From an uncultured Candidatus Actinomarina sp. (GTDB lineage Bacteria > Actinomycetota > Acidimicrobiia > Actinomarinales > Actinomarinaceae), in the NCBI GenBank assembly GCA_902610815.1, contig CACLXG010000002.1, forward strand, positions 834 through 64,833: a DNA stretch of 64,000 nt. The letters are read 5' to 3'. A program made the position numbers and the translations under genes. The notes below the pieces were generated by a model, which was not told the origin of the DNA, made no database searches, and worked only from the letters and a program-made list of their open reading frames with translations. Positions 5,157 to 56,546 of the stretch are shown in pieces (the first letter of the stretch is position 1; every line of letters starts with the position of its first letter).

Positions 5157-6122
5157 TTAACTAGATATTCTCTCAGTTATAAAAGAGATAACTTTTTGGG
5201 AGTCAACGCCTATACAAATATTTACTTTTCTTCTATTTTCCCAAGGTTTTAAACGCTCCCCAAGACCTTCTTCATTATCTGAAATTCCCATTCCCATCCA
5301 AGTTTTTCCCCTGCTAATACCCTTAGTTTCTACTTTTATTGGATAACTCAGGGTTTCGAAATATTCTGGATGAACTAAATATGTTATGGCTGATGAGTCA
5401 TGAACGGGCATTCCATTATCTTGAAAAAAATCTTTCAAAAAATCGAAATAGAAAGGATTAATTTTGCCTATATGTTTAGATTTATCATTATCAAACGAAC
5501 CTAATGTAACAACCTGTTCCTCATTCATAAAAACATTATTTGTTACATCGAGACCAACCATAGTTATTTCACACTGAGCAGAAAACACAATATCAGCTGC
5601 TTCAGGGTCATTAAGTATATTTGCCTCTGCTGTTGGAGTTGCATTGCCTGGAGATTGAGCATTGCCACCCATTAAAACTATCTCTTTTATCTTTGAGTCT
5701 ATACCCTCGTGAATAGTCAGTAGATTTGCAATATTAGTCAATGGCCCAACAGGAACAAGAGTTATTTCATTCGGATTAGTTTCAATAATTTCTTTTAAAA
5801 AAGTAACAGCATCAACATCTAAGGGTTTTGTTACAGGTGAAGACAAAGCAGCATTACCTTGACCATTATCTCCATGAACAAAGGAAGCCGCACCTCTAAA
5901 ATCTCCATTCAAAGGAACATTCGCTCCCTCAATTACCGGTACATCTATCCTTTCTGCAATTTCTAAGAGCCGAAGAGCATTCTCAGTGCAAGTTGTAGTT
6001 ACTGCATTACCAAAAATTGTTGTTAAGCCAAGCACCTCTAACTCAGGTGAGTTAAGTGCGACAAAAATAGCCAACGAGTCATCTACTCCCGGATCTGTAT
6101 CAATTACAATTTTTTTGACCAA
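5157..6122 (-). CDS. inosine-uridine-preferring nucleoside hydrolase family protein (paralog 1)
   Basis: N-terminal IDTDPGVDDSLAI aspartate cluster, then GPLTNIA and LNDPEAADIVF. Confidence 0.85.
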   Translation of the reverse strand: MVKKIVIDTDPGVDDSLAIFVALNSPELEVLGLTTIFGNAVTTTCTENALRLLEIAERIDVPVIEGANVPLNGDFRGAASFVHGDNGQGNAALSSPVTKPLDVDAVTFLKEIIETNPNEITLVPVGPLTNIANLLTIHEGIDSKIKEIVLMGGNAQSPGNATPTAEANILNDPEAADIVFSAQCEITMVGLDVTNNVFMNEEQVVTLGSFDNDKSKHIGKINPFYFDFLKDFFQDNGMPVHDSSAITYLVHPEYFETLSYPIKVETKGISRGKTWMGMGISDNEEGLGERLKPWENRRKVNICIGVDSQKVISFITERISS

Positions 6123-10109: not shown

Positions 10110-10775
10110 ATGAAAGATATAAAAATTACAGATAATCATCCTGTAAAAAAAAGAAAGACACTCGGACCTATTGGAAGGTTTCTTTTAAAACTTGTTAATT
10201 GGAATATAGTTGGTAATTTACCTGATAAAAAAAGAATTATAATCGCATCAGCACCACACTCATCTACTTTCGATGCCATTTATGCCTATTTTGTTTGTTT
10301 AGCAGTAGATTTAAAATTTTACTTTCTTGGTTCCGTTTCAATGTTTACGCGTATTGTTGTACCGCTTCCATTTAAAAAAAACCCAGATAAACTAGGCATA
10401 CCTCATCCTTTCGGAAAAATTCAAAATAAACTACTCCTTGAATTTGGAGGAATACCTGTATGGAGAGCAAAGCCAACAGGCGTTACACAACAGGTGATTG
10501 AACAATTAAAAACAAAAGAGAAATTTATTTTATATTTAACTGTTGAAGGTGAGATGAAAACAAACCAAACCATAAAAAGTGGTTTTCATTATATTGGAAA
10601 AGCATTGGATGCCACTGTTGTTCCAACCAAGATAGATTATAAAAACCGAAGATTCCAACTAATGGAAGTTTTAGAACTTACAGACTCAGTCGAGGCAGAT
10701 AAAGAAGCATTAATGGACAGGTATCATTTAGTTCAAGGTAAAAACAAAACATTTTTTAAGCCAGGTTCAAAATAA
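10110..10775 (+). CDS. acyltransferase (PlsC/LPLAT-like)
   Basis: HSSTFD matches the HX4D motif; EGEM-type second block (VEGEMK). Confidence 0.5.
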   Translation: MKDIKITDNHPVKKRKTLGPIGRFLLKLVNWNIVGNLPDKKRIIIASAPHSSTFDAIYAYFVCLAVDLKFYFLGSVSMFTRIVVPLPFKKNPDKLGIPHPFGKIQNKLLLEFGGIPVWRAKPTGVTQQVIEQLKTKEKFILYLTVEGEMKTNQTIKSGFHYIGKALDATVVPTKIDYKNRRFQLMEVLELTDSVEADKEALMDRYHLVQGKNKTFFKPGSK

Positions 10776-18006: not shown

Positions 18007-18429
18007 ATGATTAAAAAAATATATATTGCAGGTCCACTTTTTAATAAACATGAACAGATGTATCTAGAAGATATTGCAAAAGTATTAGAGGGAAATGGTT
18101 ATGATTGTTTTTTGCCACATAGAGACCAAACGGGCATAGACGAATCTGAACTTAAAGGAACGGATATGTCTCAAGAAACAAAAGATAGAATCTTTAAGAA
18201 TGACCTTGATGCACTTGAGGATGCTGATCTAACTGTCGCTTTGATAACTGGGCAAGACATAGATTCAGGCACTTCAGCAGAAATTGGCCACACTTATGCA
18301 AAGCAAAAGCCTGTAATTGCAATTAATGCTAATGAGAGAAGATATAGAAATCTATTTGTCGAGGGCATGTTGACTGTAACTGTAAATAATATAGATGAAA
18401 TAATTCCTGAAATTGAAAAATTAGGCTGA
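18007..18429 (+). CDS. nucleoside 2-deoxyribosyltransferase-like protein
   Basis: IYIAGPLF N-terminus and DSGTSAEIGHTYAKQKPVIAI block. Confidence 0.6.
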   Translation: MIKKIYIAGPLFNKHEQMYLEDIAKVLEGNGYDCFLPHRDQTGIDESELKGTDMSQETKDRIFKNDLDALEDADLTVALITGQDIDSGTSAEIGHTYAKQKPVIAINANERRYRNLFVEGMLTVTVNNIDEIIPEIEKLG

Positions 18430-19665
18430 AACTAAAAGATTTTTAAATCCCCTGATTCCAAAAGCACCAGTTCTTGAAGGCTCTTCTATTAAGCTGAACT
18501 GTTTTTCAAGTATATGGTTGAAGGACACTCCTAGCTCTAATCTTGCCAAATGGGTACCAATACAGAAATGTATACCCCCACCCCAACTACTGTGATCTTT
18601 CATTTCACGCTTGAAGTTTATCTGATCAGGATTTTCGAATACTCTGGGATCTCTATTTGCAGAACCAAGCAGTATTGCAACTTTCGACCCTTTACTGATA
18701 TTGTGTCCACCAATCTCTACATCTTCTAGTGCATATCTCTGAAAAAACTGTAATGGACTATCGTATCTAATTAATTCTTCTACAATGTCATTTATGTCTT
18801 CAGCTTCTTTTTTTATTTCATCAAAAGATTGATCTAGTGTAAGTAGTGCATGAAGTCCGTTTCCAAGTGTGTTAACAGTTGCTTCATGACCTGCGTTTAG
18901 AAGTAAAATAACAGTACAAATAATTTGATCATCAGTGAGATAATTATTGTCTTCAGAAACCTGTGACAACCTTGTTATCATGTCATCTTCTGGATGCTTT
19001 CTTCTTTTATCAAGTAAGTTTTGCGTATACTCAATAAATTGTTTTGCTGCCTCCTCTGCGTTATTAGCATTTTCTGCAGTAACTTCAAAGTCGTACATTT
19101 TTACAATTTTATGTGACCAATCCAGAAATTTTAAATGATCACTTTCAGGCACTCCTAAAAGCTTTCCAATAATGCTTACTGAATAGGGCTGTGCATAATC
19201 TTTTAACATATCGAATTCTGTACCTTTATTTTTTTCAAATAAATCGTTGGATTTTTCTTCCATGTAGGGGACTAATTGTTGAACTGATCTCGGTAAAAAA
19301 GCTTTTGCTACTAAACCACGAAGCTCTTTATGAAGCTGACCTTCAAGATTTAATAATGAAAATTCTTCAGATTTCCAGAAATTGTCATAAGTTGCATATT
19401 TATCAGACCTTTTATACCCAACAAATGTAAGTGGAATGTCTGTTTCTGATAATTCCTCCTCAAAACCTTCAATATGATTAAAAGTTGTACCGAATGTTTT
19501 AGTAGATTGAATAGTTCTAACATCTTCATAACGAGTAAAAAAATAAAGACCATTTATTTCGTCCCAAAAAACAGAAGTGTCTTCTCTAAATTGTCCCATT
19601 ATTTTATATGGATTTTTAATAAATTCCATATCTTCTGTCGGCAGGTGCAACTTTGGAATGCTCAT
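18421..19665 (-). CDS. cytochrome P450
   Basis: Heme loop WGGGIHFCIGTHLA, I-helix LLLNAGHEAT, EELIRY (ExxR). Confidence 0.85.
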   Translation of the reverse strand: MSIPKLHLPTEDMEFIKNPYKIMGQFREDTSVFWDEINGLYFFTRYEDVRTIQSTKTFGTTFNHIEGFEEELSETDIPLTFVGYKRSDKYATYDNFWKSEEFSLLNLEGQLHKELRGLVAKAFLPRSVQQLVPYMEEKSNDLFEKNKGTEFDMLKDYAQPYSVSIIGKLLGVPESDHLKFLDWSHKIVKMYDFEVTAENANNAEEAAKQFIEYTQNLLDKRRKHPEDDMITRLSQVSEDNNYLTDDQIICTVILLLNAGHEATVNTLGNGLHALLTLDQSFDEIKKEAEDINDIVEELIRYDSPLQFFQRYALEDVEIGGHNISKGSKVAILLGSANRDPRVFENPDQINFKREMKDHSSWGGGIHFCIGTHLARLELGVSFNHILEKQFSLIEEPSRTGAFGIRGFKNLLVSA

Positions 19666-19774
19666 AAAATAATTATATTGGCATAGTTATTGAGTTGAAA
19701 CCAAAATTAAAACAATATAAAAAATTAAAGATGAAACTCTTTTATGTATTGTGTAAAATATTTATAATTAGTTT

Positions 19775-19810
19775 CAATGTTTAAAAGGTAACCATTGTTA
19801 AAAAAACCTA
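19775..19810 (+). promoter_or_regulatory. candidate preQ1-I-like riboswitch aptamer (copy A), leader of ecfA1
   Basis: CAATG/CATTG stem. Loop AGGT is complementary to ACCT after a 7-A tract. GUAAC-P1-UUAAAAAAAC resembles class-I preQ1 aptamers. Second copy at 21548. Confidence 0.5.
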
Positions 19811-19830
19811 TTTAAAAAAAAAGAGGTTTT

Positions 19831-20661
19831 GTGTCTGTAGTAAAAATAGAAAATCTTACTGTCCAATATCTTGGTGAAGAAACAAATGCATTGGATGGGG
19901 TCTCTCTTGAAATTCAAAAAGGAGAATTTGTTGCTTTGTTAGGTGCACATGGTGCCGGTAAAACAACACTATGTCTTTCACTAAATGGTATTGTGCCAAA
20001 CATGATTAGTGCAGATATGTATGGGGCAATAGAAGTATTGGGTGAAGTACCTCCCAAGATTCCCGTAAGGCAACTTGCAACTAAAGTTGGTAGCATTTTT
20101 GACAATCCAGAATTTCAAATGAGTCAGCTTACAGTTTTTGAAGAAGTGGCCTTAGGACTCCAAAATTTAGGAGTGGAAAAAACTACAATAGAAAAGAACA
20201 TATCAGAATCGTTAAAACTTGTCGGCCTAGAGGGGTTTGAGGATAGGTCTCCATTCGAAATATCTGGAGGACAACAACAAAGGTTAGCAATGGCTTCCGC
20301 TTTAGCAATGAAGCCGGAAATTTTAATACTAGACGAACCAACATCTAATCTTGATCCAATTGGAAAAGAAGAAGTTTTCTCTGTTACAAGAAGCCTGAAT
20401 CAAGAAGAAGGATTAACTGTAATAATTGCTGAACATGAAGTAGAAGTTATTGCAGAATTTGCCGATACATTAGTCCTCCTAGACGAGGGAAGGATAAACG
20501 AAGTAGGAACTCCACAGGATATATTTCCAAGATTTGTTGATCACCAAGAGGATATTGGTGTAAGGGTTCCTCAAGTTACGGATCTAGCTTCAAGAAAAAC
20601 TCAAAATTTTAATTCAATTCCTGTTACCTTAGATGAGTCAGTTGAGATGTATAAAAAATGA
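19831..20661 (+). CDS. ecfA1: ECF transporter ATPase component A1
   Basis: GTG start after AAGAGG. Walker A GAHGAGKT, signature SGGQQQR, Walker B ILILDEPT. Confidence 0.85.
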   Translation: MSVVKIENLTVQYLGEETNALDGVSLEIQKGEFVALLGAHGAGKTTLCLSLNGIVPNMISADMYGAIEVLGEVPPKIPVRQLATKVGSIFDNPEFQMSQLTVFEEVALGLQNLGVEKTTIEKNISESLKLVGLEGFEDRSPFEISGGQQQRLAMASALAMKPEILILDEPTSNLDPIGKEEVFSVTRSLNQEEGLTVIIAEHEVEVIAEFADTLVLLDEGRINEVGTPQDIFPRFVDHQEDIGVRVPQVTDLASRKTQNFNSIPVTLDESVEMYKK

Positions 20662-21461
20662 CAAAAATAAAAGTATCTAATTTGCAACACAAATATCCAA
20701 ATGGTGTTATTGCTGTAAGTAATGTAAATGTTGAAATTGAACAAGGTGAACAAGTGTCCGTTGTAGGTCAAAACGGATCTGGAAAAACCACATTAGTTAA
20801 ACATTGGAACGGCTTGTTAAAACCCACTCAAGGAAATGTTTTTGTTGGAGAACTAGATACTTTAGATCATTCTGTAAATATTCTTGCAAGAAAAGTAGGT
20901 TATGTATTTCAAAATCCAAACCATCAAATTTTTGCAGCTTCTGTAAGAGATGAGTTAGAATTTGGTTTAATCAATATTGGATTAGATGAGGAGGAAGTAA
21001 ACAGCAGGACTAACCGTATTGCTGAAGAATTTGGATTAGTAGAATATTTAGAGACAAATCCTTACAGGTTAGGATTTTCATTAAGAAAAACGGTTGGAAT
21101 GGCATCAATAATAGCTATGGAGCCAGATGTTGTTGTTCTTGATGAACCAACAACGGGTCAAGATTATCTTGGAATAAAGGCAATTAGAACAGCAATAAAA
21201 AAATTAAAAGATCAAGGCAAAACAGTAATAGTGGTTTCTCATGATATGCCACTTGTTGCAGAAGACACAGACAGGGTTTTAGTAATGTGTGATACAGAAT
21301 TAATTTTTGATGGAACACCATCCAAGCTATTTGCAAGTAAAGAGATATTATCCAAAACAAATCTCCTACCACCACAAATTACTAGTTTTACACAAAAAGT
21401 TGGTTTAAATATTGAAGGCGAAAGCGTGCTATCTGTTGAAGAAGCTGAAAAAGTCCTTTAA
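20658..21461 (+). CDS. ecfA2: ECF transporter ATPase component A2 (degenerate signature motif)
   Basis: Walker A GQNGSGKT, Walker B VVVLDEPT, H-loop VSHD. The LSGGQ position reads LGFSL. Confidence 0.85.
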   Translation: MTKIKVSNLQHKYPNGVIAVSNVNVEIEQGEQVSVVGQNGSGKTTLVKHWNGLLKPTQGNVFVGELDTLDHSVNILARKVGYVFQNPNHQIFAASVRDELEFGLINIGLDEEEVNSRTNRIAEEFGLVEYLETNPYRLGFSLRKTVGMASIIAMEPDVVVLDEPTTGQDYLGIKAIRTAIKKLKDQGKTVIVVSHDMPLVAEDTDRVLVMCDTELIFDGTPSKLFASKEILSKTNLLPPQITSFTQKVGLNIEGESVLSVEEAEKVL

Positions 21462-21547
21462 CCATCTCTTTTAATGAGTTACAACATATTTTGTAAATTT
21501 TAATAAAATAACATGCACGCCATATATTTTGTTTATAGAATAAAATT

Positions 21548-21581
21548 AACAATGTTCGTTGGGATCATTGTTAAAAAACCC
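21548..21581 (+). promoter_or_regulatory. candidate preQ1-I-like riboswitch aptamer (copy B), leader of the S-component operon
   Basis: AACAATG/CATTGTT stem. Loop GGG is complementary to CCC after a 6-A tract. Same layout as copy A with compensatory P2 change. Confidence 0.5.
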
Positions 21582-21584
21582 AAT

Positions 21585-21624
21585 CAATGCTGATAATTAA
21601 TTTATTAGCATTGTAATTTCTTTC
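21585..21624 (+). terminator. putative riboswitch expression-platform terminator
   Basis: 12-bp stem CAATGCTGATAA / TTATTAGCATTG (one G-T pair), 5-nt loop, then TAATTTCTTTC. The 5' arm can instead pair with the aptamer 3' arm CATTG. Confidence 0.45.
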
Positions 21625-21638
21625 GAGGGGGAGATTAG

Positions 21639-22331
21639 ATGAACGAACAAGCCACTCAAGGCGAAAAACTAAGTAGCTCTACTGGCGGTGGAGTTCCATT
21701 AACATATGTTATTGCATTAGTACCTGTTGCTTCTGTTTTGAATGTTATTGGTGGAACTGTCGCTGGAGCTTTAAAGCTACCTATATTCTTGGACATGATT
21801 GGAACAGCAGTTGTTGCTATGACAATAGGTCCTTGGTGGGGAGCATTAGTTGGAGTGATTACAAACCTAACAATGGGCTTTTTAACAGGTCCAGTTTCTA
21901 TTCCATTCGCGGCATGCAACGTAGTTGGTGCTTTGGTATGGGGTTATGGAACAAGATGGGGCTTTGCTAACGATAAACTAAGATTCTTTGGTTTGTCTGT
22001 AGCATCAGCAGTATTTGTATCACTAATGGCAGCACCAATTGTTATATTTGTTTTTGGTGGAGCCACAGGACATGCTTCAGATGTTTTAACAGCTGGATTA
22101 TTAGCAGCTGGAAATGACATGTGGGCAGCAGTGTTTTCAAGTAACATTATTGTTTCTTCAGCTGATAAAATTCTTTCGTCATTCTTGGCGTTAGCAATTA
22201 TAGGAGCATTACCTACAAACTTGCAGGTAACAGGTCCAATAATGAAGGCTGAAAATATGGGCACAGCAGTCTTAATTACAGCAGGTACAGTAGTAGGTGT
22301 AATTCTTACTGTTGTATCAATGAACTTGTAG
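21639..22331 (+). CDS. ECF transporter substrate-specific (S) component
   Basis: 6 TM segments; LKLPIFLDMIGTAVVAMTIGPWWGALVG matches the general S-component pattern. Strong GAGGGGGAG SD. Confidence 0.7.
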   Translation: MNEQATQGEKLSSSTGGGVPLTYVIALVPVASVLNVIGGTVAGALKLPIFLDMIGTAVVAMTIGPWWGALVGVITNLTMGFLTGPVSIPFAACNVVGALVWGYGTRWGFANDKLRFFGLSVASAVFVSLMAAPIVIFVFGGATGHASDVLTAGLLAAGNDMWAAVFSSNIIVSSADKILSSFLALAIIGALPTNLQVTGPIMKAENMGTAVLITAGTVVGVILTVVSMNL

Positions 22332-22344: not shown

Positions 22345-22533
22345 ATGAGAGAAGTAACATCAAAAGATGGTCTTGGTGCTGGTATTATCGGCCTGGGTAT
22401 AATGTATGCAATTTATCCATGGGCATCTTCTGAAATGGCAGGAGACGCAGCCTTTGGTATGTTGTCAGGGTTATGCTTGGTTGCAAGTTTACTCACAGTA
22501 CTTTGTGGGCTAGCTGTCTTAAGAGCAAAATAA
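22345..22533 (+). CDS. small membrane protein
   Basis: 62 aa with 2 TM segments, in-operon between the S component and the phosphorylases. Confidence 0.4.
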   Translation: MREVTSKDGLGAGIIGLGIMYAIYPWASSEMAGDAAFGMLSGLCLVASLLTVLCGLAVLRAK

Positions 22534-22545: not shown

Positions 22546-23289
22546 ATGGACGCTGTTCAAAAAATTGAACAAGTTAAACATTTACCTATAAAATTTGGAG
22601 AAGTCGCCCGGTACGTAATCGTGCCGGGCGATCCCAATAGGGTCCCTGTTATAGCTGAGTCTCTTGAAAATGTAACAAATCAGGGACAAAATAGAGAATT
22701 TAACGCATACAAAGGTACACATAAGGGTATTGAAGTATCTGTTGTTTCAACTGGGGTCGGTTGTCCATCTACAGCGATTGCTGTAGAAGAGTTATCACAC
22801 ATTGGTGCTGAAGTATTTATTAGGATTGGCACATCTGGATCCGTTGACAAATCAGCAAAAAAAGGAGATATTTTTATTGCTACAGCAGCTGTTAGGGACG
22901 ATGGTACATCAAAACAGTACATACCTATAGAGTTTCCGGCTATAGCATCACACAATGTTGTTAGTAATTTAATTAAAGCTTCCGAAAATTTAAATATTGA
23001 TTCAAAAGTCGGAATATGTCAGTCAAAAGACTCTTTTTTTGGAGAAACGGAACCTGAAAGGATGCCTGTTGCACCTTACTTAGATTTTAAATGGAAATCT
23101 TGGCAAAAAGGAAGTGTAGGTGCTTCAGAAATGGAAGCTGCAACACTATTTACAATATCACAAATTAAAAGAATAGAAGCAGGAGCAATTTTAGCAATAG
23201 AGACATCCGATAAAGACACTATAAAGAAGATGACAGAAATAGTTTTAGAGAGTATAACTTATATGGAAAGGGAAAAAAATGTCAGCTAA
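22546..23289 (+). CDS. nucleoside phosphorylase, NP-I (PNP/UDP_1) family, paralog A
   Basis: GVGCPSTAIAVEEL, RIGTSGS, SEMEAATLF blocks typical of Udp/DeoD-type enzymes. Confidence 0.8.
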   Translation: MDAVQKIEQVKHLPIKFGEVARYVIVPGDPNRVPVIAESLENVTNQGQNREFNAYKGTHKGIEVSVVSTGVGCPSTAIAVEELSHIGAEVFIRIGTSGSVDKSAKKGDIFIATAAVRDDGTSKQYIPIEFPAIASHNVVSNLIKASENLNIDSKVGICQSKDSFFGETEPERMPVAPYLDFKWKSWQKGSVGASEMEAATLFTISQIKRIEAGAILAIETSDKDTIKKMTEIVLESITYMEREKNVS

Positions 23290-24070
23290 TGATGAAAAAA
23301 CCAAAGCAGGATTACTAGATGTAGATCTTCAATACCATGTTCAACTTAAAACTGGGGATGTGTCAGATTTTGTAATATTACCTGGTGATCCAGGAAGGGT
23401 CGAGTTCATAGCTGAGCACTTTGACTCAGCTACATTAGTAGCGGATAATAGAGAATACAAAACCATGACAGGTGTATATAAAGGTCGTTCTGTTTCTGTT
23501 ACATCAACCGGAATTGGTTGCCCATCTACAGCGATAGCTGTAGAAGAATTAGCAAACGTAGGTGCAAAAACATTTGTTAGACTTGGAACTTCAGGAGCTA
23601 TGCAAGAATATACAAGAGTAGGAGAAAAAGTTATTGCAACAGGTGCTGTTAGATACGAAGGTACATCAGTGCAATACATGCCTATAGAGTTTCCAGCTGT
23701 GGCTTCGCACGATATGGTTTCTGCACTAATACAATCAGCAAAAGAAGCCGAATTAAATCACCATATTGGGATTGTGCAGTCAAAAGATTCATTCTACGGA
23801 CAACACAATCCGGAAGGAATGCCTATCGCCTCAGAATTGCTTCAAAAATGGGATGCATGGGTTAAAGGAGGTGTTCTTTGCTCAGAAATGGAAGCAGCAA
23901 CATTATTTGTTGTTGGTTCTTATAGAAAATTAAGAACAGGAGCAGTGTTATTAGTTGCTGGAGACCAAGCAAAACAAGAATCTTTAACGAAAGAAGAATA
24001 CAAAGCAAATATGACAGAATCAATTAATATGATACTTGAATCAAGTTTACAAATTGAGGAAGGTTCATAA
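23279..24070 (+). CDS. nucleoside phosphorylase, NP-I family, paralog B
   Basis: GIGCPSTAIAVEEL, RLGTSGA, SEMEAATLF. Overlaps the paralog A stop. Confidence 0.8.
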   Translation: MSANDEKTKAGLLDVDLQYHVQLKTGDVSDFVILPGDPGRVEFIAEHFDSATLVADNREYKTMTGVYKGRSVSVTSTGIGCPSTAIAVEELANVGAKTFVRLGTSGAMQEYTRVGEKVIATGAVRYEGTSVQYMPIEFPAVASHDMVSALIQSAKEAELNHHIGIVQSKDSFYGQHNPEGMPIASELLQKWDAWVKGGVLCSEMEAATLFVVGSYRKLRTGAVLLVAGDQAKQESLTKEEYKANMTESINMILESSLQIEEGS

Positions 24071-24969
24071 TGGCAAGAGTACCAGTTGGAGCATACGTTC
24101 CAGGCGATTCTTTCTTTCACAAAGCTCATCCGTTTGTAAAGTTTTACTGGGTTGGCTCATTTGTAATATTTTGTTTTTTTAACAAAAATCCCTATGTGAA
24201 TTATTCGCTAACTTTAATCGGTTTAGTATTCGTTGTTCTTACAAAAACTTTTCCAAGTTATGTAAGAGCTATGGTTATTTTCTTTCCTGCGGCATTTGCA
24301 ATGATATTTCTTCAATCGATTGTCCCTCCAGCAGTATTCGATAATCCAGAATTATTAGCAGAAATTGGTCCCTTTTCTCTTTATACTGAATCAATTATTT
24401 ACGGGATGCTATTTAGTAGTCGTATTTTATGTATATGTACATGGTCTATATTAATGTTGATGACTTTACACCCAGGAGAGTTATCTTCAGCGCTACAAAA
24501 AGCTCGCGTACCTTATACAGTAAATTTCATGATAACAACAACCTTGCAACTCATTCCTATTCTTCAAAGAGAATTTGGAATTATTTTATCCGCACAAAAA
24601 TCAAGGGCCATGGAAGCTCAGGGATTTAAGGCTTTGTTACCATCAATAATTCCAGTTTTTGCAGGGGCTATAGATCGAGTTTCTCAGCTATCTATGAGTC
24701 TGGAAACAAGAGCTTTTGGTGCTAACAAAGAAAGAACACTATTGAGATATAAAGAGTTTACGACAAAAGAAACAGTATTGTCTATTCTTTCTCTAGCACC
24801 AATTGTTCTTGTATTTTATGGAAGGGCAAACTTTAATGCATTTGTGCCATTAGAAGGGTTTTCTTTATCTCCTTTTGCTGGTTCTTTCATTGTAATTTTT
24901 TGTGGCACAGCTTTTTTATCTATAATTTTCGGTGCAACTTTCGCCATAAGACTTCTTGGTAAGAAGTAG
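24070..24969 (+). CDS. ecfT: ECF transporter transmembrane (T) component, CbiQ family
   Basis: About 6 TM segments with the two coupling-helix Arg motifs (KSRAMEAQGF, LETRAFG). Confidence 0.75.
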   Translation: MARVPVGAYVPGDSFFHKAHPFVKFYWVGSFVIFCFFNKNPYVNYSLTLIGLVFVVLTKTFPSYVRAMVIFFPAAFAMIFLQSIVPPAVFDNPELLAEIGPFSLYTESIIYGMLFSSRILCICTWSILMLMTLHPGELSSALQKARVPYTVNFMITTTLQLIPILQREFGIILSAQKSRAMEAQGFKALLPSIIPVFAGAIDRVSQLSMSLETRAFGANKERTLLRYKEFTTKETVLSILSLAPIVLVFYGRANFNAFVPLEGFSLSPFAGSFIVIFCGTAFLSIIFGATFAIRLLGKK

Positions 24970-24977
24970 TAAACTAA

Positions 24978-26255
24978 TTGACTCAAACAAGCTCTGAATA
25001 TATAAAAGAAAACTTTGTCTTTAATTACACAATGTTTATTTTAGACAGCATTGGTTTTGGTTCTGCTTTTGCATTACTCATACCATTGAGTTACACACCT
25101 GACGTAGCCTACGAAATATCAGGAGTATGGTTTGCTGCTCCGTCCGTAATAATAATATTTTATTTTTTAAATATTTTTGGACAATTTATTTCTTCATCAA
25201 ATAGAAAAAAAGAAGAAGATTCGAAACTTGATGTAATTAAATGGGGAATTTTAGAAAGATTAGGATTTGTTCTGATTTACCTTTCAATAAATTATTTTCT
25301 AGATTCTTCATTTATACTTGCAATTTTTCTTATTACTTATGGAATTTTTGTATATAGCTCTGGGGCAATCCTTCCTGCTTATTTTGATTTAGTTTCTAGA
25401 GTGCTATATAAACATAGGGCAATATTTTTTGCAGCAAACCTTACTACAGGATCATTAGCTGGTTTTTTAGTTTCTAGATATGTTGATTTTAGAATCCAAG
25501 AAAAAGGTTTAGTTGGAGGCTTTTCAGACGGTTTATTGGTAGTTATTGCTATAACTTCATTATCGTTAATTCCTCTAATTTTGATTAGAGAGCCAAAAGG
25601 GATTAGTCAAAATAAGAAAAAATTGAATGTAGTAATAATTAAAAATAAATTAAGAGATTGGTATGAGATATATAAAAACAGTACAGATGTAAAAGCTATT
25701 GCATTATCAAATATTGTTAGTGTAGTTCCTGAATCTATTACTCCGTTTTTTACAATATGGCTAATTAGTTATTACCAAGTAGATGCAACAAAAATTGGGA
25801 TATGGGTTACTTTATTATTAATAAGTCAAAGTTTAGGAAGTTTTATAGTCCCAATTCTTGCTTCAAGACTAGGATTCAAAACTACATATATTTTTGGATT
25901 ATTTTTTCATTTTATAGCAAGTATGCTATTTATATTAAATCCTTTGATATTCCAAAATTTAATATTTATTTTTGCTGGATTGGGTTCTGGAACGTTTGTA
26001 ACATCACAAAGCAATATTTCAGTAGAGATTGGAAAAGTTGGAGACGCAGGTAACACAAATGCAATGCTGACTGCTTTTAGATTACCGGGCCTTATCTTAG
26101 GCCCGTTTATATTTGCTTATTTTGTAAATTTAGGGAATATAATTTTTTTCTTATTTGTATCTTTAATATCATCACTACTTGGTATTTCTATAATGCAATA
26201 TAGAATGAAAAATAAAATATTTCCGCAAGTTAGATTCTGGAGTAAAGACTCTTAA
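24978..26255 (+). CDS. MFS-like polytopic membrane protein
   Basis: About 12 TM segments. TTG start in the track, so the true start is uncertain. Confidence 0.5.
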   Translation: MTQTSSEYIKENFVFNYTMFILDSIGFGSAFALLIPLSYTPDVAYEISGVWFAAPSVIIIFYFLNIFGQFISSSNRKKEEDSKLDVIKWGILERLGFVLIYLSINYFLDSSFILAIFLITYGIFVYSSGAILPAYFDLVSRVLYKHRAIFFAANLTTGSLAGFLVSRYVDFRIQEKGLVGGFSDGLLVVIAITSLSLIPLILIREPKGISQNKKKLNVVIIKNKLRDWYEIYKNSTDVKAIALSNIVSVVPESITPFFTIWLISYYQVDATKIGIWVTLLLISQSLGSFIVPILASRLGFKTTYIFGLFFHFIASMLFILNPLIFQNLIFIFAGLGSGTFVTSQSNISVEIGKVGDAGNTNAMLTAFRLPGLILGPFIFAYFVNLGNIIFFLFVSLISSLLGISIMQYRMKNKIFPQVRFWSKDS

Positions 26256-26524
26256 TTTCTACCTTTATATAAAAAAGCAAGACCAGCAATCAGAAGAATT
26301 ACAGAAAGGTATAAATAAACACCGAATACTGATCCAACTGCTGCAATTGTCACTAACCCAAATCCAGTTCTTTGATCATTGTTATAAGAGGGTAGGTAAT
26401 AAAAAATTTTGTTTAAGATATGATTTTTATCTTTTATCCTTTTTTCATCGATCCAAAATACAATGAAAATAATCACAAATGTTGCTAATAAAATAAGCTG
26501 TTCTCTTAAGGGTAAAACAACCAT
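26252..26524 (-). CDS. small membrane protein
   Basis: 90 aa with 3 hydrophobic segments. Shares 1 nt with the rbsK stop. Confidence 0.4.
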   Translation of the reverse strand: MVVLPLREQLILLATFVIIFIVFWIDEKRIKDKNHILNKIFYYLPSYNNDQRTGFGLVTIAAVGSVFGVYLYLSVILLIAGLAFLYKGRN

Positions 26525-27399
26525 TATATTGAATATGAAGATTGAGTACCAGGTCTAGTCACAGAATCAGAGGCTTTTTCAACACCAATTTTTATTGCAT
26601 CTTCTGTCGTATATCCTGATGCAATTCCGTATGAAAAGGCTCCAACAAAAGCATCTCCAGCACCTGTAGTATCAATAGCATTAACTTTTGGAGCTTTAAT
26701 TTTTTTCACAGAACCTTCTTTACTAACATAAGCAGCTCCTTCTTCGCCGAGTGTAACAATTAAGTTTGATTTTATAGAATTAGAGTACTTAATTAAATTT
26801 GAATCATCAAATGCATTTAATCCTGAAATAGTCTCAAATTCTACCTCATTTGGAATAAACCAATCTGTAGAATCCAAAAGTATTTGTGATGGGATTTTCG
26901 CTGGTGCTGGATTTAAAATTGTTGTGATGCTATTGGTTTTTGCATATTGAAAAACTTTTTCTGTTACTTCAAGTGGAATTTCAAACTGACCAATTATAGC
27001 CTTTAAATCTTCTATTTTTTTTATAGCTTCTATGGCTTCATCACCATTAATTAAATCATTTGCACCAGACACAACAATAATTCTGTTTTGTCCTGAGCTA
27101 TCAACCCATATTGGAGCAACCCCACTTGATCCAAGCACTCTTTGAATGAAGTCAACATTAACGCCGCTTTTCTTAAAATTTTCTATAGTCATATCTGCAT
27201 ATACATCGTCGCCTAAGCAAGTTATCATATATGTTTCAGCACCCATAAGTCCTGCCATAACGGCTTGATTTGCTCCCTTACCACCAAAACCCATTTTGTA
27301 TTCATTTCCAAAAACAGTCTCACCGTCAGATGGAGTGCTATCTACATAAGCAATTTGATCAATATTAGAGCTGCCTACTATACAGATTTTTGAAGCCAT
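26524..27399 (-). CDS. rbsK: ribokinase
   Basis: GGKGANQAVMAG and DTTGAGDAFVGAF. Start moved to MASKICIVGSSN, which removes a divergent overlap with 27449. Confidence 0.8.
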   Translation of the reverse strand: MASKICIVGSSNIDQIAYVDSTPSDGETVFGNEYKMGFGGKGANQAVMAGLMGAETYMITCLGDDVYADMTIENFKKSGVNVDFIQRVLGSSGVAPIWVDSSGQNRIIVVSGANDLINGDEAIEAIKKIEDLKAIIGQFEIPLEVTEKVFQYAKTNSITTILNPAPAKIPSQILLDSTDWFIPNEVEFETISGLNAFDDSNLIKYSNSIKSNLIVTLGEEGAAYVSKEGSVKKIKAPKVNAIDTTGAGDAFVGAFSYGIASGYTTEDAIKIGVEKASDSVTRPGTQSSYSI

Positions 27400-27448
27400 G
27401 AAAGAATTATAAAAATATTTTATTATTTTATCTACTATGATTTGATTT

Positions 27449-28429
27449 ATGGGCATTAATTGGGAATCTAAAGTTTTGAGTTCGGTAGGGAATGTAATTG
27501 ATAATGCTCAACATATATCAGTAAGTGAAAAATATATAGAAACGGTTGCTGATTGGCTAGCTTACGAAGAGTTTGGACTTCCTAAAAACAATAAAACAAA
27601 TAAAGATCCCGATAATTTTATTCGAACGACAATGCTTATTAATACATTAAACTTTGCGTTTACTGATTTTGATACTTCGATTAAGTATGCAATAGAACGA
27701 GATGGACAGACACTTTCAGACAGTGAAGCCATGTTTGCTCAAGTACATGAAGCAATTGATTCTGGAATTAATCTACTTAATGGTGAAGTATTAGAAAAAT
27801 TAACAATTGAAGAACTAGAAAAAATTTTTAAAGGAAATATTGAAATGCCAATGCTTAAAGAACGAGTAGAAATACTAAATGTTGTAGGCACAAAACTTGT
27901 AGATAGCTATGAAGGGGATTGGTTGAATTTTATTAAAAACGGCCCACGAAAACTTTATTCAAATGGTGAGGGGCTAATTGAAAGATTAGTTTTAGAATTT
28001 CCCCGATTTAATGATTCTTCGATTTATTTAGATAAAGAGGTAAATTTCTATAAATTAGCACAATTAGCATTTTGGGGTATTCATGGAGAACTTGCTCACT
28101 CGGATTATTTTAGAATAGAAGACATGGAATCTATGACAGCATTTGCAGACTACATTGTACCGGTTGCCCTTATTGTTATGAAAATTACTCGATATTCAGA
28201 TGAGTTAGAAGAAAAAATTATGAATGGAAAAATGATAGAAAGAGATTCAACTGAAGAAATTGAGATACGTGCAGCTTCGATATATGCAACAGCAAAGCTC
28301 ACTGAGAGTGTGAACAGGAGAAGAAAAGACCTCGAAAGTTTAATAATACCCCAACTTGATTACCGACTTTGGAAGCATTACCACGCAACACACTTTCCTC
28401 ATCATTTAACTTATACAACAATGTATTAA
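27449..28429 (+). CDS. queuosine salvage protein, DUF2419 / Qng1 family
   Basis: Blocks match human QNG1 (C9orf64) as I recall it: TLNFAF, VNFYKLAQL, MTAFADYIVP, EIEIRAAS, LDYRLW, C-terminal PHHLTYTTMY. Confidence 0.7.
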   Translation: MGINWESKVLSSVGNVIDNAQHISVSEKYIETVADWLAYEEFGLPKNNKTNKDPDNFIRTTMLINTLNFAFTDFDTSIKYAIERDGQTLSDSEAMFAQVHEAIDSGINLLNGEVLEKLTIEELEKIFKGNIEMPMLKERVEILNVVGTKLVDSYEGDWLNFIKNGPRKLYSNGEGLIERLVLEFPRFNDSSIYLDKEVNFYKLAQLAFWGIHGELAHSDYFRIEDMESMTAFADYIVPVALIVMKITRYSDELEEKIMNGKMIERDSTEEIEIRAASIYATAKLTESVNRRRKDLESLIIPQLDYRLWKHYHATHFPHHLTYTTMY

Positions 28430-51595: not shown

Positions 51596-51669
51596 GCGCC
51601 TGTGGCTCAACTGGATAGAGCATCTGACTTCGGATCAGAGGGTTGGGGGTTCGAGTCCCTCCAGGCGTG
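51596..51669 (+). tRNA. tRNA-Arg (anticodon UCG)
   Basis: Hand-folded cloverleaf: acceptor GCGCCTG/CAGGCGT (G1-U72), D arm GCTC/GAGC, anticodon arm TCTGA-CTTCGGA-TCAGA, T arm GGGGG-TTCGAGT-CCCTC. CCA is not encoded. Confidence 0.8.
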
Positions 51670-52786
51670 CAAAAAGTTTATTTATTTGCTTAACTCTCTC
51701 ATAATATGAATATTGTTCAACATTTTTATATATTACATCTTTGTTATTACTTGCTTCTTTAAGTCTTTGAATAAATTCTAAAGTGTCACCTTCCTTAAAA
51801 AAATATATTAAGTCTGAGTATGGCAAAGCTCTATGAGCCTCAAAGTCAATTGCCATCACATTCAAACCAGACCTAATATATTCAAAATACTTAACAGGAG
51901 ATGTGTGAAATTTAGAATGTTTATCATTTGAAGAGTTAATTAAAATACCTACGGAATGAGAAGATAACAATTTCATTAATTTATCTTGCGGTATATAGTC
52001 TAAAATTTCCACATTTGATATATTGTATCTATGGACATCCTCTCTTAACTTGTCACCTAATTTTTTAGGGCCGCCTATAATCCTGAGCTTATATTCTCGA
52101 AGCTCTTCATTGCTAAATGCATCTATCAAAAAGTTTAAATTTCTATCTTCATTAAACCTTGAGAACCTACCTACAAAAATAACTTCTTTATCATTTTTTG
52201 AACTATTCAAATCTTCAAAATCACTTTCATCATACGCTGAAGGATAAACAATCATATTTTCTATTTGTGTATCACTTAGTTCAAAGCTTTCAAGTAAAAG
52301 AGTATTTTGGAATACATAACCGGAGTTTTTTTTATTTTTAAGTAATTTAAAAATAATATTTGTAGATTTCGAATATTTATGACATTCAAAAATTATTGTT
52401 AGATTTTTTCTCGAAAAAAAATAAAATATCCAATTCGATCTTGTATAAAATAAAGTATCTTTTAAATTTTTATTGCTTAATAAATACTTTATGAAAATAA
52501 AAAGTGACCATATGAAATGACTTAATATAAATGAAAACTTATTTAAAAAATTAATTTTTCCAAATGGTAAAAAATAAGCTGTCCTTACTATATTTATTTT
52601 TTCTTTTATATTGTAAAAATCTAAAATTTCATTGTTATCTGGTTTAATTTTTTCTCTTCCAGGAAAAATTAAAGAAACATCATATCCAGATTTCTTAAAA
52701 TAGGAAACAGTTTTCATGCTGACTATAGTGTTTGCACTAAACATTGGAAAGTTTTGAAATGTTATATAATGCAAAGGCTTATTCAT
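51635..52786 (-). CDS. glycosyltransferase, GT4/GT-B-like
   Basis: C-terminal half has VIFVGRFS...LRIIGGP and a SPVKYFEY...G block. The last 12 codons are antisense to tRNA-Arg. Confidence 0.6.
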   Translation of the reverse strand: MNKPLHYITFQNFPMFSANTIVSMKTVSYFKKSGYDVSLIFPGREKIKPDNNEILDFYNIKEKINIVRTAYFLPFGKINFLNKFSFILSHFIWSLFIFIKYLLSNKNLKDTLFYTRSNWIFYFFSRKNLTIIFECHKYSKSTNIIFKLLKNKKNSGYVFQNTLLLESFELSDTQIENMIVYPSAYDESDFEDLNSSKNDKEVIFVGRFSRFNEDRNLNFLIDAFSNEELREYKLRIIGGPKKLGDKLREDVHRYNISNVEILDYIPQDKLMKLLSSHSVGILINSSNDKHSKFHTSPVKYFEYIRSGLNVMAIDFEAHRALPYSDLIYFFKEGDTLEFIQRLKEASNNKDVIYKNVEQYSYYERVKQINKLFARLEGLEPPTL

Positions 52787-54876
52787 TATGCTTCTTTGAC
52801 AAATATATTTTTAATTCTTAACAAATTTATAAGAATTAAAAATATTAAAAAATTCGGTACATAAAGTGCTGAATCACTTTTTAAAAAATTAATTATGAAA
52901 AACAGCAGTAGTATATTTCCATAGAAGTCATTTTTATTTTTCACAACATAAACAAAGATTAAAAACAATACAACCAAAAGTCCGATAGTGCCAAAAAATA
53001 TAAAATATGTTATTAGTGAGGAATGAGGTAAGACTAACCCTTCTTGATATTTAGTCTCATGTCCTAAATAATATTCAGTAAGTTGATTTGGCCCATAACC
53101 AAAAAGAAATTCAGATAGATTTGGATTGTATTTTGCAATAAAAATGCCCCATTTTTCTGATCTATTTACATAATACGAAACTGAACTAACAAGCGATATA
53201 GCACTTGGAACATTATCAATTTTATTACCAAAGGTATAGGAATTTAATAAATATTTAAGGGACGAAGAGAAGTTAGTATTATCAGCAGGAAGAGAGAGCA
53301 AAAGAGCATAGTTTGCTTGTTCAATAGCTGATTCATTATATTCATTTAATTGAAAATCATAACTTATTGATGAAGCTTTAACCGCTTCAAACATGACTGA
53401 TCCACTCAAAAGCTGAAAAGAATTATTAGCTATTAAAAATAAATATCCGACTATTAACAAAATTATTAAGAGAAAATAAATAAGATTTCTTGTCTTTTTA
53501 CTTTGTACATTTTTATAAATTAAAATAACCAAAATCAATAGCATTAGGCTAATAATGGCAGCTGCGTTATTTGCACGGTATAGTCCATAAAAATTTATTA
53601 GAAGAAGAAAAAAATGATAGATTTTAAACTTAAACTGATTAATTAAATATGTTACAAGGCAAAATAATATTGCAAATGCAAAAAACTCTCCGATTGACTC
53701 TGCACTTGGATACAATCCCCGCCAGGCATTTCCATCAACACTTTGCATAGTATTCATCCCTGATTTGTTGTGTCCTAATATATAAAAACTTAAAAAATTT
53801 ATCGGTAGATTGATAGCACCAATTAAACCAGTAATTACTATTAAAGAAGAGGCTATTAAAAAATTATTACTTAACAAATTTAAATCAAGACTGTCTTTTG
53901 ATAAATCAACTATATATTTAACTCCAATTAATAAAAGATAGAAAACAATTGCCCAAAACAATAATGAGATATTTGTTTGTGATGTGTTAGCAAAACCTTT
54001 GATTTTATCTACATCAAAATTCTTATCTAAGTTTTCAGAATTAAGAAACCAAACTATAAAAAACAATAAATATGTAATTGATAATTTGATACTTACTTTG
54101 TTATTAAACAACCCAAGAATTCCTATAAAGCTAAAGACCAAAATAAAAAAGTTTATATTTAATGAGGCAAAGGATCCATAAATGAAAAACATAAACGGGA
54201 AATAATTTATTAAATTTGTAATTCTTGTTTCAAGTAATTTATCAATAAAATAAAATAAATATATTAAAATCAAAATAAAACTATATAAATAATAGTTATC
54301 AAATATTATAGAATTATCAAAATCTCTATAGAATGGCCAGGGAAAGTAATCTCTTCCAATTGTAGAATAGTAACTTCTTTCACCAATTAGATGTAGATAA
54401 ACCAAAAGCACTCCAAGTAAAATCGATACCTTGTTTAATTTTGTAAAACTATGTCTGTTTTTTGGAATTAAAGATAAAAAAGTTAACCAAATTATTGATT
54501 GAACTATTAAATCAACGTGGGTGTTAGTAGCTACCCTCACAACTAATTTGATTGGACTATATTTTTCCCATCCATCTTCAATTTTTTGTTCTCGTCTGTA
54601 GTCAATCCAAAAATTTTTACCAGCACATTCGATACTTCCACTAGGCTCGTTTCTGATTGAAATATCATAGTTGAGATTATAAGAATTTAATACTTCAAAG
54701 AAAGAATATTCGCACTGTAAATTATGGTAAAAGTATACCCAACTTTCTAAAGATTCTCTTGAATCCAATTGATAAGGTTCAGTTTCTGAGATATTAAAAG
54801 CTCCAAAAAGTATTAAGACAAGGAATACAAGGATAATTAATTTATAAATATTTTTTCTAATTTTTAAGGAGTTCAA
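52786..54876 (-). CDS. 696-aa polytopic membrane protein (O-antigen polymerase/ligase-like role is a guess)
   Basis: N-terminal TM segment, a Cys-containing ectodomain, then more than 12 TM segments. Sits in a glycan gene cluster. Confidence 0.45.
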   Translation of the reverse strand: MNSLKIRKNIYKLIILVFLVLILFGAFNISETEPYQLDSRESLESWVYFYHNLQCEYSFFEVLNSYNLNYDISIRNEPSGSIECAGKNFWIDYRREQKIEDGWEKYSPIKLVVRVATNTHVDLIVQSIIWLTFLSLIPKNRHSFTKLNKVSILLGVLLVYLHLIGERSYYSTIGRDYFPWPFYRDFDNSIIFDNYYLYSFILILIYLFYFIDKLLETRITNLINYFPFMFFIYGSFASLNINFFILVFSFIGILGLFNNKVSIKLSITYLLFFIVWFLNSENLDKNFDVDKIKGFANTSQTNISLLFWAIVFYLLLIGVKYIVDLSKDSLDLNLLSNNFLIASSLIVITGLIGAINLPINFLSFYILGHNKSGMNTMQSVDGNAWRGLYPSAESIGEFFAFAILFCLVTYLINQFKFKIYHFFLLLINFYGLYRANNAAAIISLMLLILVILIYKNVQSKKTRNLIYFLLIILLIVGYLFLIANNSFQLLSGSVMFEAVKASSISYDFQLNEYNESAIEQANYALLLSLPADNTNFSSSLKYLLNSYTFGNKIDNVPSAISLVSSVSYYVNRSEKWGIFIAKYNPNLSEFLFGYGPNQLTEYYLGHETKYQEGLVLPHSSLITYFIFFGTIGLLVVLFLIFVYVVKNKNDFYGNILLLFFIINFLKSDSALYVPNFLIFLILINLLRIKNIFVKEA

Positions 54877-55172
54877 CTTTTAGAAACCCTGGTAATTATA
54901 AATTTGTAAACTACTGGAACTATCAACAAAAACAAAAACAAAAATTTTTCACCATCAAAAAAATCTGAAACATTGTTCGTCCAACCACCTTTAGCATAAT
55001 ATGCGCATTCCAGCCAAGAATTTAAATTTACAACATTACCTTCTTGGTCAAATAAAGCTATTGTTTCAAAATTTTTGTCTGGAGTAAAAACAAAATTTGG
55101 CGAGTTTTCTATTTCTTCAAAATTAGGAATGTTTTCTGATTCACCACAAATTTTTTCTATTCTTTTTTTCAT
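54873..55172 (-). CDS. small C-tail-anchored protein, paralog of 62920..63222
   Basis: Start set at MKKRIEKICG. Shares the pattern CG...NF.F...V.NS..EC..Y..GGW plus a C-terminal TM with its paralog. ATGA overlap with the downstream giant gene. Confidence 0.45.
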   Translation of the reverse strand: MKKRIEKICGESENIPNFEEIENSPNFVFTPDKNFETIALFDQEGNVVNLNSWLECAYYAKGGWTNNVSDFFDGEKFLFLFLLIVPVVYKFIITRVSKS

Positions 55173-55239
55173 ACGAGATTTAATTATATTCACAATTAGT
55201 CGATTAGTTATTAGTTTTAAATAGTTTAAAATATAAGTT

Positions 55240-56082: not shown

Positions 56083-56099
56083 GCAATATAATAAACAAT

Positions 56100-56414
56100 A
56101 TGAATGACGAGCAAAAATGGTCTGATATAACAAATGATATAGCAAATGTTTCCAAGAAAATTAAATCACGTATTGATGAGGAAGAGCTTGTAGAAGATTT
56201 AAAGGACACTTTTAAAAACACAATAGAAAATACTTCGCAACTTATTAATAATATAATTCAGACAGTTGAATCTACCGTAACAGACGAAGAAATAAAAAAA
56301 GAGACTAAAGAGATTGTGAGTAATATAAATGTTGAACTTAAAAATTTACTTTTTGAAACTAAGAATAAATTTGCAGAAGTTTTTGAATCAGACTCCCTAT
56401 CTGAGGAAGAGTAA
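56100..56414 (+). CDS. acidic coiled-coil protein
   Basis: 104 aa, E/K/N-rich; no motif recognised. Confidence 0.35.
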   Translation: MNDEQKWSDITNDIANVSKKIKSRIDEEELVEDLKDTFKNTIENTSQLINNIIQTVESTVTDEEIKKETKEIVSNINVELKNLLFETKNKFAEVFESDSLSEEE

Positions 56415-56472
56415 AGTTAATATTCCTTATAGTAAATTGAGGTGTTTATAATATCTTTGTTACTAATTAACT

Positions 56473-56545: not shown

Positions 56546-56546
56546 C

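Follow-up and report, generated by a model that had tools for sequence, protein, structure and literature searches.

To our knowledge the class I preQ1 (preQ1-I) fold is the smallest natural aptamer, and it is a model system. It is an H-type pseudoknot in which stem P1 is closed by G5-C and loop L1 supplies U6 (PMC7641330, PMC11625349). Immediately 5′ of the P1 3′ strand stands the specificity cytosine, which follows U in type I and A in types II and III (PMC11625349), and an A-rich loop L3, whose last adenosine (A29/A30) reads the ligand, leads to stem P2, which holds Shine-Dalgarno (SD) nucleotides (PMC7641330, PMC11625349). Among the known targets of preQ1 riboswitches are queT and qrtT, genes for S components of energy-coupling factor (ECF) transporters (PMC5372724, PMC11477304). 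Here we analyze two copies of a related element in a 64-kb stretch of DNA from an uncultured Candidatus Actinomarina sp. (contig CACLXG010000002.1; all 64,000 nt are called the window below). Copy A lies in the leader of ecfA1, an ATPase gene of an ECF transporter operon, and copy B in the leader of the S-component gene of the same operon. The element is very likely a real, conserved, sense-strand RNA pseudoknot and likely a riboswitch, and a preQ1-I architecture is reasonably probable. The overall explanation that we favor, at somewhat better than an even chance, is that the two copies are cis-acting preQ1-I-type sensors of a guanine-faced ligand and that copy A is an ON switch.

A preliminary description of copy A had proposed a hairpin, A-tract and pseudoknot laid out as in the Thermoanaerobacter tengcongensis (Tte) aptamer. 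Its coordinates for copy A are all correct, and the Tte sequence that it quoted is the one in print (CUGGGUCGCAGUAACCCCAGUUAACAAAACAAG; PMC7641330), with which the copy A string GUAAC-(P1 3′ arm)-UUAA(C/A)AAAAC agrees at 14 of 15 non-stem positions. All pocket bases are present: G19779-C19793, U19780, C19792 and A19806, the last in a tract of seven A at 19800-19806. Like the type II aptamers of Tte and Bacillus subtilis, copy A has the layout of an H-type pseudoknot with a 5-bp P1 closed by G-C and a U after the 5′ strand; like Tte in particular, it has ..GUAAC with the specificity C before the 3′ strand, the tail UUAA(A/C)AAAAC, and pairing of the G of GUAAC with the first C past the A-tract (PMC7641330). 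It departs from type II in its L1 of 6 nt (3 nt in type II), its AU-rich P1, its fully Watson-Crick P2 (AGGU/ACCU), a P2 3′ strand that resembles an anti-SD sequence and not the start of an SD, and its genes, which are not queCDEF, queT or yhhQ.

The other two types offer partial parallels. Copy A combines UU after the P1 5′ strand with AC before the 3′ strand, the combination found in type III (Escherichia coli; Pseudomonadota), and shares with that type a canonical Watson-Crick P2 (PMC11625349). In type III, however, a pyrimidine-rich loop pairs with the tail SD AAGG, the SD is fully buried and the switch is OFF (PMC11625349), whereas in copy A the polarity is reversed, with AGG(U) in the loop, CCU in the tail and the SD 14 nt further downstream. 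Type I (Carnobacterium antarcticum), which binds two stacked preQ1 molecules, is resembled by the last unit of a tandem array in a sister clade (UU after P1, UC before the 3′ strand, tail AAAAAACUAA), but that unit has a low score with the family model (see below), and the window copies are without the UC arrangement plus G-C closing pair. New relative to preQ1-I are the P2 polarity, the gene association, a natural variant of the specificity site and the lack of detection by the family model.

Taken singly, copy A gives no thermodynamic signal (−2.4 kcal/mol, z = +0.49, not significant), and a loose descriptor of a hairpin with an A-run is very common in DNA of 32% G+C, with more than 100 hairpin + A5 matches in the window. 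The evidence is comparative. We drew on 80 loci with relatives of the S component, from species-representative genomes, and 40 more Actinomarinales contigs from metagenomes (L-numbers below are locus labels), and built a covariance model, R1, from 21 orthologous units with P1 as its only stem. R1 has two strong matches in the window, at 19772-19812 (57.1 bits) and 21547-21585 (43.2 bits), each placed immediately before a start codon; the next reaches 15.3 bits and falls inside a coding sequence. Over 122 related loci, matches of 25-60 bits occur in Actinomarinales only, always on the sense strand and directly before ecfA1 or the S gene, and the element is present in 6 of 11 Actinomarinales species. 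There are no R1 matches in 69 loci of Chloroflexota, Microbacteriaceae and Rhizobiaceae with the same gene cluster, nor in a second Actinomarinales clade (L004, L006-L008, L010, L094). An alignment of eight orthologous ecfA1 leaders has the aptamer core as its most invariant block, while L1 and the flanks drift.

For the pairing itself, 27 distinct units were aligned in structural register, anchored by hand on the GG/CC of P2 and padded with N to hold the columns. Standard pairs fill 85.2% of the P1 and P2 cells, compared with 78.5 ± 1.4% after shuffling (0 of 500 as high), and the covariation score is 0.303 as against 0.191 in shuffles (0 of 500), figures to be read with the limits that independent events are few, the genomes closely related and the alignment hand-anchored to the proposed structure. 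When the 3′ partners are slid by 1-3 columns, 18-56% of cells are paired. P1 (94% of cells paired) shows AU-to-GC double changes at two positions, as in CAAUG/CAUUG, CGGUG/CACCG and UGAUG/CAUCG. P2 (78%) has four core pairs that are 74-100% paired and undergo AU-GC exchanges, with AU-UA/UG exchanges in its outer pairs; its forms include AGGU/ACCU in copy A, UUGGG/CCCAA in copy B, AAGGUU/AACCUU in L003 and UAGG/CCUA in L081. Double-sided changes affect 5 of the 11 pairs. The G of alignment column 8 is found in all units and is paired with C in 25 of 27; the UU that follows it and the A before CC are invariant, and (U)U plus A6-9 follows the P1 3′ strand directly in every unit. A cytosine occupies the specificity position in 22 of 27 units, and the P1 arms are separated by 10-15 nt. 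The test of orthologous leaders that had been suggested thus comes out in favor of the proposal: the pseudoknot layout is conserved, and P1 and P2 both covary.

Existing family models do not recognize the element. The preliminary description had proposed a search with RF00522 (PreQ1) and had named the lack of a hit near the gathering threshold as evidence against its reading; RF00522 gives no match on copy A, and at E ≤ 10 none on stretches of 161, 181 and 49 nt around both copies. The preQ1-II and preQ1-III models do not match either, nor do SAM-II/V, fluoride, guanidine-III or any other Rfam 15 family, and no riboswitch reaches gathering in the 64-kb window. Nothing in Rfam reaches it in 11 orthologous loci, nor does a known riboswitch in the orthologous operons of 18 loci from other phyla. 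Other Rfam matches are at noise level only (E 0.02-10) and to unrelated families (miRNA, snoRNA, CRISPR repeat). RF00522 is the only Rfam family touched by any unit, its best relative being the last unit of the L009 array (5922-5961), which aligns over its full length with 11.9 bits (E 1.5-5.3), 27 bits under the gathering score of 39. By this operational test the element is not a member of RF00522; it probably works like, and descends from, preQ1-I.

How copy A might act is suggested by the rest of its leader. A TATAAT hexamer at 19763-19768, from which the preliminary description had suggested a transcription start at the first stem base, is present but is not conserved in orthologues, and no other stretch of the leader is less conserved than the one around it; the conserved promoter-like pair in Table 1 would place the transcription start at about 19766, some 9 nt upstream of P1. 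The complementarity of AACCT (19805-19809) to AGGTT (19824-19828), which had suggested a translational platform, is confirmed, and in energy models of the leader P1 forms together with the longer alternative hairpin AAAACCU/AGGUUUU. The sequence GAGG followed by U4-5 is kept in 7 of 8 close orthologues of copy A's clade. The SD GAGG is 14 nt downstream of the P2 3′ strand ACCU, to which it is paired in the alternative fold, a fold that would represent the OFF state. Inspection of the sequence and energy models show no occlusion of the SD in P2 for copy A, whose P2 3′ strand is ACCU, and copy A has no terminator. Because the A-tail and CCU are also needed for the pseudoknot, ligand-stabilized folding should free the SD, and the logic that the preliminary description left open is most simply read as ON. 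We hold this reading at a little short of an even chance because CCU-SD pairing is generic. A leader peptide (TTG at 19795, MLKKPI) was also considered and was rejected, as the A-tract length of 6-9 breaks the frame.

In the mechanism that we propose, copies A (19775-19809) and B (21548-21583) would be cis-acting RNA sensors in the 5′ leaders of the two transcription units of one operon. Each would fold as a preQ1-I-type H-type pseudoknot with a P1 of 5-7 bp and a P2 of 4-5 bp between the loop and the sequence past the A-tract, and the A-rich tail is expected to lie in the P1 minor groove. Copy A would most likely bind a guanine-faced base in the pocket described above, the leading candidate being preQ1 or another 7-deazaguanine such as queuine, with guanine possible. 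Without ligand, AAAACCU would pair with AGGUUUU and hide the ecfA1 SD; with ligand, the decoy AGGU would hold the tail and CCU in the pseudoknot, the ribosome-binding site would be free and translation would be ON.

Copy B bears out the claim of a second copy with a compensatory P2 change, UUGGG/CCCAA replacing AGGU/ACCU. It retains P1, P2 and the tail and has U21565 in place of the specificity C. U also occupies this position in copy B of L001 and L002 (..GGGAU/GGGCU), and AAC-C is found in L003, L011, L081 and L232. The C-to-U change could mark either altered specificity or incipient decay. A change of specificity by C74U is known in purine riboswitches, where the ligand is selected by one Watson-Crick C or U; guanine riboswitches control purine and nucleoside uptake genes in Bacillus, and the adenine 'add' riboswitch of Vibrio is a translational ON switch in which ligand frees the SD. 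The element resembles these riboswitches in having C in copy A and U in copy B and in its place in the leader of genes for transport or catabolism of nucleosides or bases, but it is a 35-nt pseudoknot whereas the purine riboswitch fold is a three-way junction of about 70 nt.

The -10-like box before copy B (Table 1), with similar boxes at the same place in other loci, suggests a separate transcript start near 21548. Downstream, the U-rich run UAAUUUCUUU of the terminator-like element is able to pair with the S-gene SD GAGGGGGAG (21625-21633), and all B leaders have a hairpin of differing sequence at the terminator-like position. Pairing of the copy B 5′ half with S-gene codons 2-4, which appears in the minimum free energy (MFE) fold with an apparent compensatory change, was discarded as evidence, as it is matched by 11-41% of shuffles. 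We also note a conserved box, (C)AACGCATG (ACATGCACGCC in the window, 21495-21512), which precedes the S-gene leader element by 35-60 nt. It recurs at L011 ~5860, L081 ~2865, L007 ~2340, L010 ~1030 and L094 ~105, in clades with and without the aptamer, and could be a transcription-factor site or part of an internal promoter.

In the sister clade the S leader carries two, three, four or five tandem units with a period of 33-36 nt. These arrays alternate CGAUG..AGGUAAAC-CACCG units, with an A.C mismatch in P1, with divergent-loop CGGUG-UU..CAUGGCC-CACCG units. The 3′ arm CACCGU is perfectly complementary to the 5′ arm ACGGUG of the next unit, so an array can shift between two folding registers, and the copy number varies between otherwise near-identical contigs. 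Tandem arrays are typical of ligand-sensing aptamers.

The close homologues of the S component are named Candidatus Actinomarina, and bacterial promoter and ribosome-binding rules therefore hold for the window; for the same reason an archaeal TATA-box or operator reading, prompted by GC-rich tRNA genes, was dropped. Copy A sits in a 165-nt gap between a divergent cytochrome P450 gene and the plus-strand operon, and copy B in the 177-nt gap between ecfA2 and the S gene. Against profiles, the S component matches the general PF12822 with 26 bits (below cut-off) and the NCBIfam 'CD3073 family' with 115 bits against a cut-off of 180; against solved structures it shows faint similarity to folate S components and nothing more, and a literature search for CD3073/CD1683 yielded nothing of use. 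Of the uridine-phosphorylase-like gene products, PnpB scores above the NCBI uridine phosphorylase equivalog cut-off, with Streptococcus pyogenes uridine phosphorylase (3qpb, 4e-76) nearest, and the nearest solved structure to the P450 is CYP107P2 (8yhn), itself an orphan. The operon is a nucleoside-scavenging system and not a recognized queuosine system; nucleoside uptake and degradation have been described for Actinomarinales (PMC7771536). As pure speculation, one can conceive of queuosine being converted to queuine, possibly by a route in which the P450 acts on the base.

Table 1. Features of the copy A and copy B region of the window, with the arrays of the sister clade (positions in the locus named).
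Feature	Position	Strand	Remarks
Cytochrome P450 gene, divergent	18421-19665	minus	
Promoter-like pair: ATGAAA (19731-19736), 17-nt spacer, TAAAAT (19754-19759)	19731-19759	+	Consensus scan; both hexamers conserved in 8 orthologous leaders
Copy A P1 5′ arm, CAAUG	19775-19779	+	Last base equivalent to G5; P1 cells 94% paired; AU-to-GC double changes at two pairs
Copy A L1, UUUAAA	19780-19785	+	First two U invariant (U6/U7 equivalents), remainder variable, in alignments
Copy A P2 5′ strand, AGGU	19786-19789	+	SD-like putative decoy; pairs with 19806-19809
Copy A L2, AAC	19790-19792	+	C19792 at the preQ1-I specificity cytosine position; C in 22 of 27 units
Copy A P1 3′ arm, CAUUG	19793-19797	+	
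Copy A L3, UU and A-tract (A-rich tail)	19798-19805	+	A-run invariant, length 6-9 across units
Copy A P2 3′ strand, ACCU	19806-19809	+	Anti-SD-like
Alternative hairpin, AAAACCU (19803-19809)/AGGUUUU (19824-19830)	19803-19830	+	In RNAfold MFE structure of the leader; hides SD GAGG (19823-19826)
ecfA1, ECF transporter ATPase	19831-20661	+	GTG start at 19831
ecfA2	20658-21461	+	
-10-like box TATAGAAT before copy B	21534-21541	+	TA(G/A)AAT-like boxes at the same place in L011, L081, L232
Copy B	21548-21583	+	P1 AACAAUG (21548-21554)/CAUUGUU (21566-21572); P2 UUGGG (21559-21563)/CCCAA (21579-21583); A6 21573-21578
Terminator-like element: 12-bp hairpin (21585-21613) and U-rich run	21585-21623	+	Between copy B and the S-gene ribosome-binding site
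ECF S component	21639-22331	+	
62-aa membrane ORF, conserved	22345-22533	+	
Two uridine-phosphorylase-like genes (PNP/UDP family)	22546-23289 and 23279-24070	+	
ecfT	24070-24969	+	
Major facilitator superfamily (MFS) protein gene	24978-26255	+	
Ribokinase gene, convergent	26524-27456		
Arrays upstream of the S gene	L009 5821-5965; L005 116-230; L086 2888-2964; L223 2418-2561; L224 2381-2565		

Several observations weigh against the explanation in terms of two guanine-type sensors with copy A as an ON switch. Besides the missing family match, the low score of the best relative, the single-sequence fold energy and the limits on the covariation test, several sister-clade units carry one mismatch in the 5-bp P1 (CGAUG with CUUCG, CACCG or CAACG). 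CCU is complementary to any SD, and its pairing is not specific evidence. Copy B has U instead of the specificity C, and no conserved mutually exclusive pairing (no antiterminator) links its terminator-like hairpin to the aptamer. None of the regulated genes (ECF transporter, uridine-phosphorylase-like enzymes, MFS) is a recognized queuosine gene, and profile searches gave no QueT match for the S component. A TGT motif search found no tgt gene in the available DNA, which says little as that DNA is a few per cent of the genome. An importer of a micronutrient under feedback control would normally be switched OFF. All regulation modes of described preQ1 riboswitches are repressive (PMC11625349, Table 1), and an ON switch is without precedent among them.

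The alternative that survives best, though we consider it unlikely, is a structured RNA without a small-molecule ligand, which would serve either as the target of an RNA-binding regulator or as a constitutive fold that adjusts how the two leaders are translated or how stable their mRNA is. P1 varies unusually little in sequence (both copies and every close relative have CAAUG/CAUUG), which would suit a sequence-specific protein, and arrays of near-identical hairpins resemble multi-site protein targets; the tolerance of P1 mismatches in the sister clade and the absence of the element from 5 of 11 Actinomarinales species also fit. It does not account for the one-for-one match of the conserved single-stranded bases with the ligand-contacting bases of a solved aptamer class, nor for covariation in P2, and the conserved cluster has no candidate gene for an RNA-binding regulator.

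Less probable again is an ordinary preQ1-I riboswitch that binds preQ1 and represses a transporter for salvage of queuosine precursors (OFF), and that escapes the Rfam model simply because it is AU-rich and its L1 is long. The pocket bases and the L2 and L3 strings agree with Tte, the UU and AC dinucleotides around the P1 strands are those of type III, qrtT and queT S components stand behind preQ1 riboswitches elsewhere, and one related unit aligns with RF00522 over its full length. That unit, however, is far below gathering and copy A has no match. More directly, the P2 3′ strand is an anti-SD CCU and not an SD, so that a ligand-stabilized P2 does not occlude the ribosome-binding site, and copy A has no terminator. 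The neighbors are uridine-phosphorylase-like genes, ribokinase and P450 instead of que genes, and no preQ1 riboswitch reaches gathering in the orthologous operons of the 18 loci from other phyla.

A DNA operator, in which a dimeric transcription factor would bind the inverted repeat CAATG-N13-CATTG just past the promoter, is very improbable, even if the repeat follows -10-like boxes at 8-16 bp in each copy and its arms are well conserved. The conserved features are asymmetric, with UU by one arm and AAC, A6-9 and CCU by the other, and an operator predicts neither the compensatory arm changes (CAATG/CATTG to CGGTG/CACCG) nor covariation between the loop and the sequence past the A-tract; the more than 100 matches all have one orientation relative to the gene. 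Asymmetric unpaired bases, an arm spacing that varies between 10 and 15 nt and the covariation of P2 rule out a simple DNA palindrome, the alternative that the preliminary description had raised. A chance hairpin with an A-run in AT-rich intergenic DNA, for which the abundance of generic matches and the flat thermodynamic signal might speak, is effectively refuted by scores of 57 and 43 bits against a best background of 15 and by the conservation and covariation of the element among species with protein identities of 87-100%, in which the flanking leader has diverged.

Of the original interpretation, then, a conserved and covarying preQ1-I-like pseudoknot in a sense-strand leader stands; RF00522 has no match on copy A, and the downstream genes are not known queuosine genes. 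A bolder version, which we regard as speculative and rather unlikely in full, is that the element would be a fourth preQ1-I type, an ON switch in which the loop decoy SD competes with the real SD for the tail anti-SD. It would induce nucleoside scavenging on a ligand other than preQ1 (queuine from imported queuosine, or guanine), copy B would read an adenine-faced base and the arrays would add cooperative or register-shifting control.

A few further observations concern the distribution of the element and its relatives. The third-best R1 match in the window (10336-10388, TTTCAATGTTTA...CATTTAAAAAAAACCC) lies inside a 221-aa ORF (10110-10775) and is judged a chance partial match. A regulon pattern search in metagenomes (GGTAACCBNNGTN{0,2}AAAAAACC) gave at least 120 matches, essentially all of them chance (R1 ≤ 19.9 bits among the matches listed), with no further gene contexts among the matches listed. 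In the clade that lacks the motif, the ecfA1 leader is short (88-100 nt), and before the S gene there is a different conserved hairpin, (G)AATATC-N14-21-GATATT(C), after which come an A-rich run and the SD GGAGGG, with no evident P2 partner (L004 5930-6000; L006 5935-6000; L007 2370-2431; L010 1060-1118; L094 140-198). This hairpin could have replaced the element as a regulator, or could descend from it with strong divergence. Among 45 Chloroflexota-type leaders (L012-L058), about 20 contain a strong SD-like GGAGGTG that stands alone, 70-210 nt before the S-gene match and well ahead of the true start; in some it is followed by an ORF of 1-3 codons (for example ATG TAA in L012) and in some by an anti-SD CACCT/CCACCT further down. 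These leaders have no Rfam family match and may be leader-ORF or three-part translational switches.

Two viral contexts also contain similar elements, which do not clarify the ligand. The related IMG/VR contigs L097 (3472-3514, minus) and L100 (1612-1654, minus) carry a 34.5-bit model match, UGAUG uuucgguaagguaac CAUCG uAAAAAAAccuu, inside a structured-looking non-coding region of ~800 nt between a TctA transporter gene and small ORFs, with a PNP_UDP_1-family nucleosidase gene four genes downstream; nothing in the phage collection matches the region. The identical elements of L098 (689-718, minus) and L153 (10556-10585, plus), CGAGG uuggggtaac CCUCG uAAAAAAAcc, lie between two phage tail-fibre-like genes and are followed by a terminator hairpin with a U8 run. 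With a 10-nt loop and GC-rich P1, this looks like a canonical type II preQ1-I aptamer.

As for the genes, the cluster of S, ecfA1, ecfA2 and ecfT with 2-4 uridine-phosphorylase-like paralogues is kept across phyla (Chloroflexota, Microbacteriaceae, Rhizobiaceae and others; L012-L080), about a dozen of these loci having, like the window, a directly attached P450 and/or ribokinase gene. The arrangement suggests a single functional unit for a possibly modified nucleoside. The 62-aa hydrophobic ORF is found in all Actinomarinales loci directly 3′ of the S component (69-98% identity), more distant loci have an ORF of 63-80 aa at the same place, and it has no Pfam or NCBIfam match; it may be an accessory membrane subunit. 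Four tRNA genes in the window (Arg-TCG, Lys-TTT, Asp-GTC, Phe-GAA, within 51596-58214) have 55-68% G+C and no encoded CCA, in surroundings of 26-30% G+C, and the final 4 kb (60000-64000) go down to 22%.

Few bacteria of the surface ocean are as abundant or as streamlined as Candidatus Actinomarinales, and what is at stake here is the control of their uptake of dissolved nucleosides. All described preQ1-I members are OFF switches for preQ1 (PMC11625349). If our explanation is true, the inverted P2 with its ON logic, the new gene association and the changed specificity base would show how a minimal scaffold can be rewired, and the element would be a candidate for a new ligand, which could in turn name the substrate of the ECF/phosphorylase/P450/ribokinase cluster in Chloroflexota, Actinomycetota and Rhizobiales. 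The element also illustrates that AU-rich relatives in marine genomes of low G+C content escape curated covariance models.

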